Source: Eledone cirrhosa
Taxonomy: Eukaryota
Direction: 5' to 3'
Assembly (NCBI GenBank): GCA_964016885.1
Contig: CAXHJY010000383.1
Span: 1-55,587, forward strand
DNA: 55,587 nt
Below the pieces are notes generated by a model. That model was not told where the DNA came from, did no database searches, and saw only the letters and a list, made by a program, of their open reading frames with translations. This document shows positions 222-45,210 of the stretch, piece by piece (positions within the stretch are counted from its first letter, which is position 1; each line of letters begins with the position of its first letter). Both the position numbers and the translations under genes were made by a program.

Positions 222-783
222 GTAGATAAATCTACCAAGAGTTTACGGTAGTGTCCAATCCGTATGAAGAACTCAATGTAATCCGGATATCATGCGAAAG
301 AAGAGATGCAATGAAAAATCACTTTCGGTGAAAGATAAACGGAATACAGAGTCAAGATAAAATATTTAAAAATAATGAATAAAACAATGAAACAGTTCCT
401 TAATTAAACAAAAAAAGTTCATTATTTAACGATCGATTCTGGGATATATATGTGTTAGAATTGGCATGTATATTTAACAGATCTATGTACAAAATTATAC
501 AAAATTATACAAACTATCAAAATTAAATATACATACCAACTCATATATATGCCGTCTTCAGAAATAATCATTTATTTCTGAAGACGGCATATATATGAGT
601 TGGTATGTATATTTAATTTTGATAGTTTGTATAATTTTGTATAATTTTGTACATAGATCTGTTAAATATACATGCCAATTCTAACACATATATATCCCAG
701 AAACGATCGTTAAATAATGAACTTTTTTTGTTTAATATAAGGAACTGTTTCATTGTTTTATTCATTATTTTTTTAATATTTTA
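222..783. mobile_element. Family A PLE mini-insertion: 3'-terminal segment (222-568, minus) plus inverted copy (572-783, plus), forming a palindrome
   Basis: Starts with the family A terminus gtagataaatctacc, also seen at 2061, 15898 and 22661. Segment 572-783 is the reverse complement of about 357-568. Flanked by (TA)n on both sides. Confidence 0.9.
572..717 (+). ncRNA. Type I hammerhead ribozyme (family A), shortened stem I
   Basis: ttattt-CTGAAGA-[long stem II]-GAAA-CGATCG-TT-aaataa. The opposite arm has GAAT instead of GAAA and is probably inactive. Confidence 0.65.
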
Positions 784-2060
784 TATATATATATATATAT
801 ATATATATATATATATACGTGTATAATATATATATATATATATATATATATTATATATACGTAATATATATATATATATATATATATATATATATATATA
901 TATATATGTATATATATATATATATATATATATATATATACGTATATATATATATATATATATATATATATACGTATATATATATATATATATATATATA
1001 TATATATATATATATATATATGTATATATATATACGTATATATATATACGTATATATATATATATACGTATATATATACGTATATATATATATATATATA
1101 CGTATATATATATATATATATATACGTATATATATATATACGTACATATATATATATATATATATATATACGTATATATATATATATATATATATATACG
1201 TATATATATATATATATACGTAATATATATATATATATATATATATACGTATATAATATATATGTATATATATAAATATATATATATATACGTATATATA
1301 TATATATATATACGTATATATATATATATATACGTATATATATATATATATACGTATAAATATATATAAATACGTATATATATATGTATATATATATATA
1401 TTATATATATATATATATATATAATATATATATACATATATATATATATATATACATATATATATATATATATACGTATATATATATATATATATATATA
1501 TATATATATACGTATATATATATATATATATATATATACGTATATATATATATATATATATATACATATATATATATATATATACATATATATATATATA
1601 TATACGTATATATATATAATATAATATATATATATATATATATACGTATATATATATATATATATATATATACGTATATATATATATATATATATACGTA
1701 TATATATATATATATATATATACGTATATATATATATATATATATACGTATATATTATATATATATATATATATACGTATATATATATATATATATATAC
1801 GTATATATATATATATATATATACGTATATATATATATATATATATATATATATATATATTATATATATATATATATATACGTATATATATATATATATA
1901 TACGTATATATATATATATATATATACGTATATAATATATATATATATATATACGTATATATATATATATATATATATATATATACGTATATATATATAT
2001 ATACGTATATATATATATATACGTATATATATATATATACATATATATATATATATATAT
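784..2060. repeat. (TA)n microsatellite array with TACG interruptions
   Basis: Directly visible. Confidence 0.97.
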
Positions 2061-2256
2061 GTAGATAAATCTACCAAGAGTTTACGGTAGTGTCCAATCC
2101 GTATGAAGAACTCAATGTAATCCGGCTATCATGGAAAGAAGAGATGCAATGAAAAATCACTTTCGGTGAAAGATAAACGGAATACAGAGTCAAGATAAAA
2201 TATTAAAAAATAATGAATAAAACAATGAAACAGTTCCTTATATTAAACAAAAAAAG

Positions 2257-2410
2257 TTCATTATTTAACGATCGTTTCTAGGATATATATGTGTTAGAAT
2301 TGGCATGCATATTCAACAGATCTATGTACAAAATTATACAAAATTATACAAACTATCAAAATTAAATATACATACCAACACATATATATGCCGTCTTCAG
2401 AAATAATGAA
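2257..2410 (-). ncRNA. Type I hammerhead ribozyme (family A)
   Basis: Minus strand reads ttcattattt-CTGAAGA-[115 nt stem II]-GAAA-CGATCG-TT-aaataatgaa. 10-bp stem I, palindromic stem III, GUU cleavage triplet. Confidence 0.8.
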
Positions 2411-5400
2411 ATATATTTATTGATAATAACAACAATTCAAAATTACAGGTCTGTTTGGGAACAGAGTTCAAATTGACCAATGAAAACGCAAAAAGTTTAT
2501 ACAGTTAGGTGTGTGTATATATGTAAGTAACTTCGTTCACAGATATGCATAAAAATATATGTTCACATGCATACGCATGCCGAAAATATGTATGTAAATA
2601 CAAAAATTCAAGGCTAATGTCTCTGTATGTTTATAATCTACAGATAAAATACGTATACGCATATAAATATAAAAATAAATATATACACACATTCATATAC
2701 TCACACATATACGTACATTCACACACACACGCGCGTATACGCATAAACATACACACAACCACGAACATACATTCACACCCCCACCCCCACACACATATAT
2801 GTGTATATACTATTATCATAAGCATATGGACATTAATGTACGCACATAAACACTGCCACACATATTTAGATCCAGATACAGAAAGTAGGTGGGGGGGGGG
2901 GAGAAGAGGTCAGTATTTAGCGGTGTCAGCAAGCTGCCTATTTATAAATGTATCTATAAATTTAGAAATAAAAGAAAAAGAAAAAAGAAATATATTAAGA
3001 AAATATATATATATATATATATATATATATATATAAACAAGTAAAATATAAAATATACATCAATATACATACATATACATGTATATATATATATATATAT
3101 ATATATATATATATATATACGTATATATACATACATATACATACACATATACATAAACACATACATACACATACATATACATACACACACCATATAAATA
3201 CACATACACATATAAATACATAGACATATACACATATCACACATATATATATAAGATACACACATACATATATATATATCCATTCACAACACACATATAT
3301 ATATATATATATATATATATATATATATATACATACACATATCTACACACATATAAAACACACTCATGTATATACACACATACACATACATACCCACACA
3401 TATATATATATATATATATATATATATATATATATATATATACACATACACCTATATATATATATATATATATATATATATATATATAAATATATATATA
3501 TATATATATATATATATATATATACACATACATACACTCACATACACATACACATATACAAAGATATATATACATACACACACACATATAATAAATATAT
3601 ATATATATATATATATACACACATATATATACATACATACATACACAAACATACATACTCATACATAGACATACATATATACACACATACATACACACAT
3701 ACATATACGCATATATACACATACATACACATCCATGTATGCGTATATACATACAAACACCACCACACGCTCACACAACTCAGACATACATAAATAAAGG
3801 GATATACATACACATATATACATATATAAATAGAGATACATATACAGATATAAATATATACACACATACACACACACACACATACATACACATACATATA
3901 CACACGCTCACACAACTCAGACATACATAAATAAAGGGATATACATACACATATATACATATATAAATAGAGATACATATACACATATAAATATATACAC
4001 ACGTACACACACACACACATACATACACATACATACACACATACATATATATACACACACATATATATATATATATATATATATATATATATATATATAT
4101 ATATATACACATATATATATACATATATATAAAAAAATAAAGAAATAAAAGAAATAAATAAATAAATTAAATAATACACACAGTCAGACAAATATGCACA
4201 CACATACATATACATATACATATACATACATATATATATATATATATATATATATACATACATACATATACATACATATATATATACACATACACACATC
4301 AACTACAAATATATATATATATATATATATATATATATATATATATATACAAACACTCACATATACATGCGCACATACGTACATATATACACATACACAC
4401 ATATACACATAGACGTATACATGTGCATACATATACATACACACATATACCCACATAAATACATAGATAATATATATATATATATATATATATACACACA
4501 TATATATATACACATATATATATATATATACACACAATCATACACCCTTATTTACATGCGCACATATGTATTTATATACTCACATACAAACACCCAAACA
4601 TACATACCTACCTACATATACATACATACATCCACGCTTACAAATACAAACAATAATAGGGGGGGAAGGGGGGAGGGATTATAGTAAATATAGGTTTCAA
4701 GAAACATAGAATATTAATCTGCATTTAGATCATAATATGTGTTTACATAGTAGTTTCAGTATTAGGAAATGTAAGAAAGAAGGCAAAATTATGCACTTTA
4801 ATATAAGTAGACTATTAATTATAGGTTAACTAAATTAAAGATAGTTAATATATTGATTTCTAAGGTGTTTACTACTTAGGTTTATAATATTTGAAGCGGA
4901 ATTTTGAAGTTAAATAGTAGTAGCGTATTAATTATAGTATAACTAAATTAAAATTATTAACGTTATGGTATCAATATTAGGAAATGAATTTAGTAATAGG
5001 GAAAAAAACAAATAAAGTATTACATCGGTAGTAGAATATAAATTATAGGTTAACTAAATTAAAAATTATATATTAATTTCTATAGTATATGTTAATTTGG
5101 TTTATAATAATTAAAACAGATATTGTATTTTATCTATAGTAGAATATAATTATAGGTAAACAGAAATTAAAATTAATACATACACATATATATATATACA
5201 TATACATATATATATATACATACATATACATATATATACATACACATACATATTTTTTCAAAAATTGCAAAGAATATATTAACTAGGTATACATCCAAAA
5301 CCTATCTCAGTCTATGATTACATGACACTCTGCAATCCATCTGTATTAGGATATTAATTTTAAGCCAATTAAATTAAATTTTTAGGTTAAACAAATTTAA

Positions 5401-43678: not shown

Positions 43679-44101
43679 CCTTGTCTGGCTTTCTGGAGAA
43701 TAGAGGAAAGGTGTTTCCTCAAAAACCAGTATGACTCTAAAAACCGGTTTGTCTGTGTGTTTACATACAGAATAGCTGGCCACTCACAGTAAAGTGACCA
43801 GTGAAAAAAACTTGGTACATCTACATATGTATACGTGTGTGTATTCATATACATACTAGTATTTCAGTATACATATATGGATGTACATCTTTAACTTAAT
43901 TGTTTAAGCGTCAGTCATACAAAAGTGAGTTACAAACGAAACGAAATTTAATTTCGTTTCGTTATTTGTTTTTATCGTCTCCGTTGAACCGGTACTTACT
44001 CACACTCTGTGCGGATTAGTCTGCCCACTACTAATTTTCATAGAAAAAGCATATAACGATATGTGCTTTTACGATTCTCTAGAGAGGCCGGAAGATAGGT
44101 A

Positions 44102-44146
44102 AATATTGCTGATGAGTTGTAACAACAACGAAACTAGTTCAATATT
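44102..44146 (+). ncRNA. Type I hammerhead ribozyme (468-bp repeat, copy 2)
   Basis: Identical to 43634-43678. Confidence 0.92.
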
Positions 44147-45141
44147 CCTTGTCTGGCTTTCTGGAGAATAGAGGAAAGGTGTTTCCTCAAAAACCAGTAT
44201 GACTCTAAAAACCGGTTTGTCTGTGTGTTTACATACAGAATAGCTGGCCACTCACAGTAAAGTGACCAGTGAAAAAAAACTTGGTACATCTACATATGTA
44301 TACGTGTGTGTATTCATATACATACTAGTATTTCAGTATACATATATGGATGTACATCTTTAACTTAATTGTTATATATATATATATATATGTATATATA
44401 TATATATATATATATATATATATATATTATATATGTGTGCGTATGTATATGTGTATATGTATTTTATATATGTATGTATGTATGTATATGTGTATGTATG
44501 TGCGTGTACATGAATATATATTTGTATATATTTATATACTTTTTTTATATATGTGTGTGTGTTTTTATGTGTGTATTTGTGTTTATGTGTGTGTTTATGG
44601 TTGCGCGTAAGTGTGTGAGTGAGTATGTGTGTTTTTTTGGTTTTTTTTTTTTTTTTAGGTGTGGTTTTTTTTTTTTTTTTTTTTTTTTTGTGAATGTGTC
44701 TGTTGATTTGGCATATTGTTGATTAGTTTAAGAGAAGTTCGAAGATAATAGTAAGATATGCACTCAGTATTTTGAATCTGTCTGCAGAATTCCCTAGACC
44801 TTTGTCACTTAGCAGAACTTAATGACTTTAGCTTTTAAAGAATCTCCCTTTCCTTTAATTCTATCGAGCATGAATGACCCCCCACTGATTTTATAGACAT
44901 CTGCTAGCTTAAGAGAAACTTATTGACAAGGAATGGTATGCCATCCGGAACTTGTTTATAGATTTCTGTCTGCCTTTGTTACTCTAAAAACATAAATAAA
45001 TATAATTTAACTATAGCTATGTAGAATTAGCCTTTAATGAATTCCCTTCTCTATCAACCAATGACCTGCACCCATCCCACTCCCCACCCTCTCCTACCAC
45101 TTGTAGAGACCTATAAATACCATATTTATTTTTTGATACCC

Positions 45142-45192
45142 AGATTCCTGATGATTTCTAATGAATGAAACAGTTCTAGTCCTGTAGAATCT
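45142..45192 (+). ncRNA. Type I hammerhead ribozyme (family C)
   Basis: agattc-CTGATGA-tttctaatgaat-GAAA-cag-ttctagtc-ctg-TA-gaatct. GUA cleavage triplet. Confidence 0.8.
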
Positions 45193-45210
45193 CTTCTATA
45201 TTAAAACTAT

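Follow-up and report, generated by a model that had tools for sequence, protein, structure and literature searches.

The contig CAXHJY010000383.1 of Eledone cirrhosa (assembly GCA_964016885.1) was analyzed over its forward-strand positions 1 to 55,587, and this entire stretch of 55,587 nucleotides is referred to here as the window. The window consists of a (TA)n array, interrupted by CG and densely filled by retroelements; low-complexity masking took 42% of it (23,387 of 55,587 bases). It contains three open reading frames (ORFs) for a reverse transcriptase (RT), one in each of the families A, B, and C, which resemble Penelope-like elements (PLEs). Four insertions of family A, one of family C, and one of a non-coding element, D, carry an inverted arm, and each of them has one long and one short end at fixed positions. 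These insertions probably arose by target-primed reverse transcription from both ends of the target, starting at two fixed sites of the RNA. The composites, the native context of the segment that distinguishes long from short ends, and a solo copy of family A are located as follows.

222–783, unstranded: composite c1 of family A, with long arm 222–568 (minus) and short arm 572–783 (plus), head to head.
2061–10571, unstranded: composite c2 of family A, with body 2061–6593 (minus, long end) and inverted arm 6592–6727 and 9767–10571 (plus, short end).
15898–29031, unstranded: composite c3 of family A, with full unit 15898–22660 (minus, long end), tandem 5′-truncated copy 22661–28647 (minus), and arm 28649–29031 (plus, short end).
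29921–35356, unstranded: composite c4 of family A, with body 29921–34670 (minus, short end) and inverted arm 34670–35356 (plus, long end).
37166–45210, unstranded: composite of family C, with inverted arm 37166–38950 (minus, long end) and body 38951–45210 (plus, short end).
43288–44373, unstranded: element D, a non-coding 468-bp tandem, with inverted arm 43288–43517 (long end) and body 43515–44373 (short end).
22658–22794, minus: tail of family A, 137 nt between the short and the long start site, in its native internal context.
47710–52660, plus: solo copy of family A, 5′-truncated, with a long end and without inverted arm.

The long ends of family A lie at 222, 2061, 15898, and 35356, at 52660 in the solo copy, and at the internal tandem junction 22661; the short ends lie at 783, 10571, 29031, and 29921. 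An earlier sequence-only reading had described these four composites with one end of each kind, and we confirmed their coordinates. In all four insertions, the match of the short end to native sequence stops at one and the same base (22795). The long ends match native sequence to 22658–22661, so that the segment between the two ends measures 134–137 nt by microhomology assignment, close to the 135 nt reported before. This segment is the published “tail” found on the inverted pseudo-long terminal repeat (pLTR) of PLEs, and the basic architecture has long been known. Family C follows the same pattern, as the reading had also stated: its long end lies at 37166, its short end at 45210 maps to 37229, and its tail comprises about 63–66 nt. 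Element D, which is nested in a TA tract of family C and had been overlooked, shows the same build as A and C with a tail of 67 nt.

All six inverted insertions (four of A, one of C, one of D) pair a long with a short end; this count omits the PLE-like pieces without inverted arm, namely solo A, B, E, and a 30-nt fragment of C. Independent choice of ends would give this outcome with p of about 0.016, and the chance that four short ends of family A coincide at one of the 13 TA-microhomology sites between ribozyme cut and long end is about 5 × 10⁻⁴. As previously noted, either arm can carry the long end: the longer arm bears it in c2 and c3 and the shorter one in c4 and C, with c1 being nearly symmetric. 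The tail on the shorter arm of c4 and C has no second copy (donor) within the insertion, indicating that these two tails were copied from an outside template; both ends of these insertions abut (TA)n. The tail of D has a donor inside the insertion, in unit 1 (66/66). Directly adjoining (TA)n was found at 11 of the 12 composite ends, the exception being the long end of c1, where 4 extra nucleotides come first.

Both ends of family A look internal. The tandem of c3 shows the native continuation past the long end, which leads into the next unit and to an ATG 155 nt on, the native context of the tail ending about 155 nt before this ATG. The first three native bases past the long end are ATA and match the (TA)n flank in three of five copies. 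From the continuation at 22661, a single native junction, together with the ATA microhomology, the long end is best read as an internal start site and not as the true 3′ end it had been taken for. Nor did the proposed cause of the short end hold, a TA microhomology just past the hammerhead ribozyme: 13 such sites are available in family A, the ends of D share about 1 nt with (TA)n, and the short end follows the predicted ribozyme cut by about 70 nt in A, 24 nt in C, and 234 nt in D. None of the insertion ends and junctions in A, C, and D lies at the predicted ribozyme cut.

We also searched the long ends for common signals. Among eight folded windows, of which that of B was disregarded, a hairpin before the long end was significant only in D (z −4.4, 0 of 300 shuffles); the values for A (z −1.6) and C (z −1.8), and for the short end of C (z −1.6), were not significant, and the hairpin was dropped as a general signal. 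As counted by eye, TGAGT stands 41 nt before the long end in C and D and 49 nt before it in A; one published Hydra consensus in the supplement of PMC8557442 terminates in a similar 11-mer. A shared tail motif was dropped as weak, given that three versions of it gave 1, 0, and 4 matches in the supplement and that these 4 are apparently unrelated.

The arms of one insertion share a source, either one RNA or two RNAs of one locus. Each short arm in family A has its own partner as the closest long arm (4/4), which is the best of 120 assignments and agrees with the expectation that arms are closer to each other than to other copies. The distances between partner arms are 2.44% (c1), 1.44% (c2), 0.27% (c3), and 0.00% (c4, with 551 of 551 positions identical up to the junction). 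Copy-private variants were likewise said to be shared by the arms; we counted 4 (c1), 41 (c2), 2 (c3), and 26 (c4) such events, with two conflicting columns each in c1 and c2, in the T-run beside the short end. This claim stands for family A, with a thin margin in c1 and weak support in c2 and c3 (see below). The arms of C show no substitution in 519 unique columns; the window holds one C insertion and no outgroup to it. No match was obtained by BLAST between families A and C, A and D, or C and D.

At the junctions, the arms overlap by −3 (c1), +2 (c2), −1 (c3), +1 (c4), and +3 nt (D), as expected for the joining of two cDNA ends. The junction of C lies at a TA tract, and the five other junctions have no target (TA)n between the arms. 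Short palindromes occur at or near the junctions of D and c4. In c1, the template positions at which the two arms stop differ by no more than 1–2 nt, as would be expected of two cDNAs on one RNA. The point where both of these arms begin, the 5′ edge of hammerhead stem I (568–572), could be a transcript start or an RT stop; an AG that could serve there as splice acceptor, as in D. virilis (PMC4209133), was not seen by eye. The arm of c2 is interrupted by element B, which replaces about 860 nt of it. We counted c2 as one insertion because its arm starts at 6592 and its first part (6592–6727) is identical to its own body at 4002–3867 (136/136). Element B represents either a later insertion with deletion or a template switch in arm synthesis. 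The body of c4 (34670) and the solo A copy (47710) are 5′-truncated 5 nt apart (reference 21122 and 21127) and diverge by 3% in the ORF region despite these near-equal truncation points; the position, beside an 8-bp palindrome, is a possible RT stop site.

The coding capacity of families A and B is contained in the following features.

20064–22505, minus: ORF of family A, intact, 813 amino acids, with predicted TERT-like RT, C-terminal GIY-YIG nuclease, and Hydra-clade motifs.
6729–9645, plus: element B, a 5′-truncated PLE with RT ORF to 9118, nested in the short arm of c2.

The RT ORF of family C is 5′-truncated, starting at about 38951, and does not include the N terminus. The structural model of the family A protein has a mean predicted local distance difference test score (pLDDT) of 86.3. 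When it was compared with known structures by Foldseek, the best matches were TERT proteins; the model aligned with yeast TERT at a VIA Z of 14.8 and a root mean square deviation (rmsd) of 4.1 over 322 residues, with DRT2 tied at 14.4. Residues 690–793 of the model match the GIY-YIG catalytic domain of I-TevI (Z 9.8, rmsd 2.3, 89 aligned). A Pfam search gave a weak GIY-YIG match in family C (E 0.036) and, on its own, no RT match for families A and C, and a PDB sequence search with the family profile returned nothing useful. Family A possesses the motifs RWR and DKT, and family C, with its truncated N terminus, DKT. The linker motif CxCx5C as well as CxxC and CxH are present in both, and CCHH is absent from the nuclease, as judged by eye. 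By these motifs, A and C are assigned to the endonuclease-positive (EN+) PLEs carrying Hydra-clade motifs. The best homologue of element B is an Octopus vulgaris protein (68%), which points to an octopod as host, and the DKSG and CxxxxCxxC motifs of B, read by eye, suggest a Neptune-like element.

The unit of family A (15898–22660) extends over about 6.8 kb, owing to a microsatellite-rich 3′ region of 4.2 kb. Between RT and nuclease, residues 478–572 (about 20790–21075, minus strand) form a disordered N/T/K/H-rich insert of about 95 amino acids that is absent from C and recalls the N-rich inserts of Adineta PLEs (PMC3846280). The frame of C (40920–42957, plus strand) has no stop after the nuclease domain and continues into the microsatellite-rich 3′ region.

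A scan for the type I hammerhead motif gave 16 sites in A, C, D, and E, at which cleavage is predicted from the motif.

22860–23007, minus: hammerhead of family A, type I, stem II of 113–116 nt, palindromic loop 3.
37246–37298 (minus) and 45141–45193 (plus): hammerheads of family C, from the motif scan.
43634–43678 and 44102–44146, plus: hammerheads of element D, from the motif scan, spaced by 468 bp.
46084–47092, minus: element E, 3.3 tandem copies of a 310-bp unit with three type I hammerheads, retrozyme-like.

The family A motif was found in nine of ten arms, and the long arm of c1 has a GAAA to GAAT change. Its stem II is far longer than the 4–8-bp helices of the PLE motifs in PMC4209133, and the 421 nt around it fold with z −4.1. 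Rfam gave no match at gathering score for 43400–47100, and in an E-value search of the whole window TA repeats swamped the best 150 of 859 matches. Outside two ragged end columns, six predicted hammerhead pairs vary by one-sided changes that keep the pair, one is broken, and none varies on both sides, which weakly suggests that the variants were already present in the source RNA. The scan missed a hammerhead-like core near 9390–9430 in element B. Element E lacks an inverted arm and has a palindrome at its 5′ end; its hammerhead core and stem II resemble those of family C (16-nt exact match).

Partial tandems of the pLTR kind occur in c3 and D. The tandem copies of c3 differ at 19 of 5,899 sites, and at three of nine such sites checked both states occur elsewhere in family A, which suggests pre-existing different units and not one circle copied twice. 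The units of D are identical over 296 nt. At the only diagnostic site of c3, a 2-nt deletion found in terminal copy 1 alone is absent from the arm, which matches internal copy 2. In D, the arm shares A7 with unit 1 and differs from unit 2, which has A8; the body begins about 15 nt beyond the long site of a virtual upstream unit.

Elsewhere in the window, a 30-nt piece of the C long end (53455–53484) lies in the array context that also surrounds the C end at 37166 and is either a duplicated junction or a tail-only insertion. The (TA)n/CG arrays at 36160, 36954, 45551, 47188, and 53256 share a higher-order pattern that recurs in one orientation, suggesting growth by tandem duplication. Unique non-PLE segments without a convincing ORF are found at 11908–13256, 13437–13658, 13906–14453, and 55435–55587; the second of them is a candidate tRNA-derived short interspersed element (SINE).

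An inverted pLTR together with a one-sided tail is known from several PLEs, among them Penelope of Drosophila virilis, Pen2a_Av of Adineta vaga, and Naiad/Chlamys (PMC3846280, PMC8557442, PMC2377424). A 31-bp tail, optionally on one end, was described with antisense self-priming as proposed origin (PMC3846280); the same structure, with a tail of 30–40 bp often at one end only, was reported in PMC8557442, where the mechanism is called undefined. The insertions studied here share with these elements the partial tandem, the inverted 5′-truncated copy at the 5′ end (in all six), the one-ended extension, and the (TA)n targets. They differ in the length of the tail (63–137 nt versus 30–40 nt), in its position in family A, wholly before the ATG and not in the ORF start, and in that the tail, called optional in those papers, is present once per insertion. 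New are tails of two to four times the published length, the strict pairing of long and short ends, the donor-less tails of two insertions, and the same build in the retrozyme-like element D.

The closest biochemical counterpart is Poseidon PAc of Anolis carolinensis (PMC11167929), which belongs to a different clade and likewise has two fixed internal start sites, an AT-rich target, and a hammerhead upstream. Its two RT start sites bound the tail. With a 361-nt RNA containing one pLTR–ORF junction, synthesis began at two sites on both strands, and these sites map to genomic tail ends; both strands were nicked and extended in vitro, a dimer was predicted, the ribozyme was dispensable, and the steps after initiation were left open. 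For the elements in the window, two-ended extension is a proposal. In contrast to family A, whose ends show 3-nt TA matches, the start sites of PAc lie inside the ORF and need no homology. In the text available for PAc, the two sites are not assigned to opposite ends of a single inverted insertion, and a literature search whose scope did not extend to key older reviews yielded, provisionally, no paper that makes this connection for PLEs.

With the Hydra clade of PMC8557442, including Hydra-1_Obim of Octopus bimaculoides, families A and C share RW[K/R], DKT, CxCx5C, CxxC, CxH, the hammerhead, and the (TA)n target, whereas the unit of A with its 6.8 kb exceeds the typical <3 kb. Hydra-1_Obim is listed with “no pLTR,” and its displayed protein differs by eye from A and C, which look like other families. 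D and E resemble animal non-LTR retrozymes (PMC7229834; bioRxiv 10.64898/2026.07.22.740005) in being non-coding tandems with a type I hammerhead per full unit. Unlike those retrozymes, D also has the inverted arm and tail of PLEs, a structural link to the PLE machinery; in the portion of the bioRxiv text searched, the word “tail” occurred 0 times and “inverted” once, in a reference.

L1 twin priming (bioRxiv 10.1101/2024.08.27.596794; PMC11702581) offers a further parallel: both DNA ends prime, the product is a head-to-head inversion with an end-joined junction, and an internal duplication is sometimes present. L1 uses poly(A) and a variable internal site, whereas the present insertions have no poly(A) and, in all four of family A, a fixed second site. 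In L1, overlaps occur in a minority of cases (17%) and are short (median 22 bp), whereas here the overlap is the whole shorter arm (about 0.2–1.8 kb). The sequence-only reading had stated that L1 arms do not overlap, a contrast that was overdrawn, as 283 of 1,703 L1 5′ inversions carry an internal duplication. L1 thus sets a precedent for a cDNA that overruns the internal primer. Because overlapping arms can come from a single RNA in L1, a multimeric or circular template, as invoked by that reading, is possible but not required.

In the two-ended reaction that we consider probable, the PLE protein would bind the pLTR/ORF junction of its own RNA and, with its GIY-YIG nuclease, cut a (TA)n tract on both strands. 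Of the two DNA ends, one would then prime at the downstream site and give the long end, and the other would prime at the upstream site and give the short end; with start sites 65–137 nt apart, both cDNAs would copy the same upstream sequence. Each cDNA would stop at a variable point, and the two 3′ ends would be joined head to head with 0–3 nt of homology. If the second end failed to prime, a solo truncated copy would result. The fixed ends, their long-and-short pairing, the shared source of the arms, the structure of the junctions, and the RT and nuclease fold of the model come from the window itself. Two-strand nicking and extension and two start sites were demonstrated in a different PLE clade; that A, C, and D take this route is inferred, as is the topology of their template. 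The earlier idea that both target ends prime fits the identity of the arms, the head-to-head junctions, and the in vitro PLE data (PMC11167929); what did not survive are the true 3′ end, the microhomology past the ribozyme, and the need for a multimer. If initiation is two-ended, the leading variant is that both cDNAs copied the same pLTR segment of one RNA with strand displacement, for which the common stop of the c1 arms and the use of both start sites on a single-junction RNA in vitro speak, although we hold this for clearly short of an even chance; different units of one tandem RNA are a less likely template, and two RNAs of one source locus a slightly less likely one again.

The inverted arm could also stem from a single molecule, if one cDNA or an antisense RNA (PMC3846280) turned back on itself and a nuclease resolved the product at a fixed site, leaving the tail (PMC8557442). 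Such self-priming would explain the identity of the arms, the near-perfect head-to-head palindrome of c1, and the palindromes at the D and c4 junctions, and the arms of c2, c3, and D, including the tail of D, could have been copied from their own bodies. When target-primed, however, fold-back should place the long end on the body and should never yield a tail that lacks a donor; c4 and C show the opposite, and their donor-less tails exclude the simple form of this model. Moreover, five of six junctions are strongly asymmetric, and genomic tail ends coincide with RT start sites in vitro (PMC11167929), so that we regard fold-back in any form as unlikely. Still less probable is a hammerhead-cleaved, circularized RNA (an idea from PMC4209133) that is copied over more than one unit from both DNA ends. 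The hammerhead motifs of A, C, D, and E, the tandem units of c3, D, and E, and the identity of the D units speak for a circle. The differences between the c3 copies, with their states known from elsewhere in family A, and the absence of ends or junctions at the ribozyme cut speak against it, as does the finding that hammerhead mutants had no effect on insertion in vitro (PMC11167929). The circle itself also leaves the pairing of long and short ends unexplained.

Two explanations without a common synthesis of both arms are very improbable. Independent insertions in opposite orientation, homogenized later by gene conversion, are conceivable in that (TA)n is a preferred target, elements often lie nested here (B in A, D in C), and the junction of C lies at a TA tract. 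The other five junctions contain no such tract, the arms of c4 are identical right up to their junction, and independent events give no reason for strict long-and-short pairing. We give marginally less credit still to an inverted duplication of DNA at cruciform-prone (TA)n or to an assembly artifact, which the low-complexity content of the window might favor. The flanks of the two sides are not mirror images, the ends differ by a fixed tail, arm divergence ranges from 0 to 2.4% according to the insertion, and the same build is found in three families without sequence similarity.

Several observations weigh against two-ended initiation as set out here. Both tandem diagnostic sites (c3 and D) favor an internal over a terminal unit as template of the arm, contrary to copying of the same segment, although each is a single indel or homopolymer difference of low weight. 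The start of the D body near the virtual upstream long site corresponds to classical non-overlapping geometry on a multimer. For PAc, the available text does not show different sites at the two ends of one break, and the start site was alike on both strands (PMC11167929). The kinship of arms is uneven: the c1 pairing margin is thin (2.44 versus 2.91%), tree support for the arm pairs is 100 (c4), 90 (c1), 58 (c2), and 50 (c3), and the c2 arms are not grouped in a tree of the 207-column core. Comparison of the flanks revealed no mirror symmetry and no distinctive duplicated pattern, a target-site duplication being unreadable in (TA)n. Finally, the sample comprises six insertions from one window.

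How PLE inverted repeats and tails form is a question that PMC8557442 calls unresolved. In these families the tails are long and the copies differ by many variants, so each insertion in the window records the start site at each end and the source, which reduces the question to simple counting across the genome; the simplest fold-back model is already excluded by c4 and C. Tentatively, and with clearly less confidence than in two-ended initiation as such, we suggest that PLE insertion is an obligatorily asymmetric two-ended reaction, in which one ribonucleoprotein, probably with two RT active sites, holds one RNA, with the long site invariably used by one cut end and the short site by the other. 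If this is true, the tail would represent the spacing between the active sites along the folded RNA, which could range from about 35 to 137 nt. One mechanism would then account for both the inverted pLTR and the one-sided tail, and the non-coding retrozyme D would use the same machinery.

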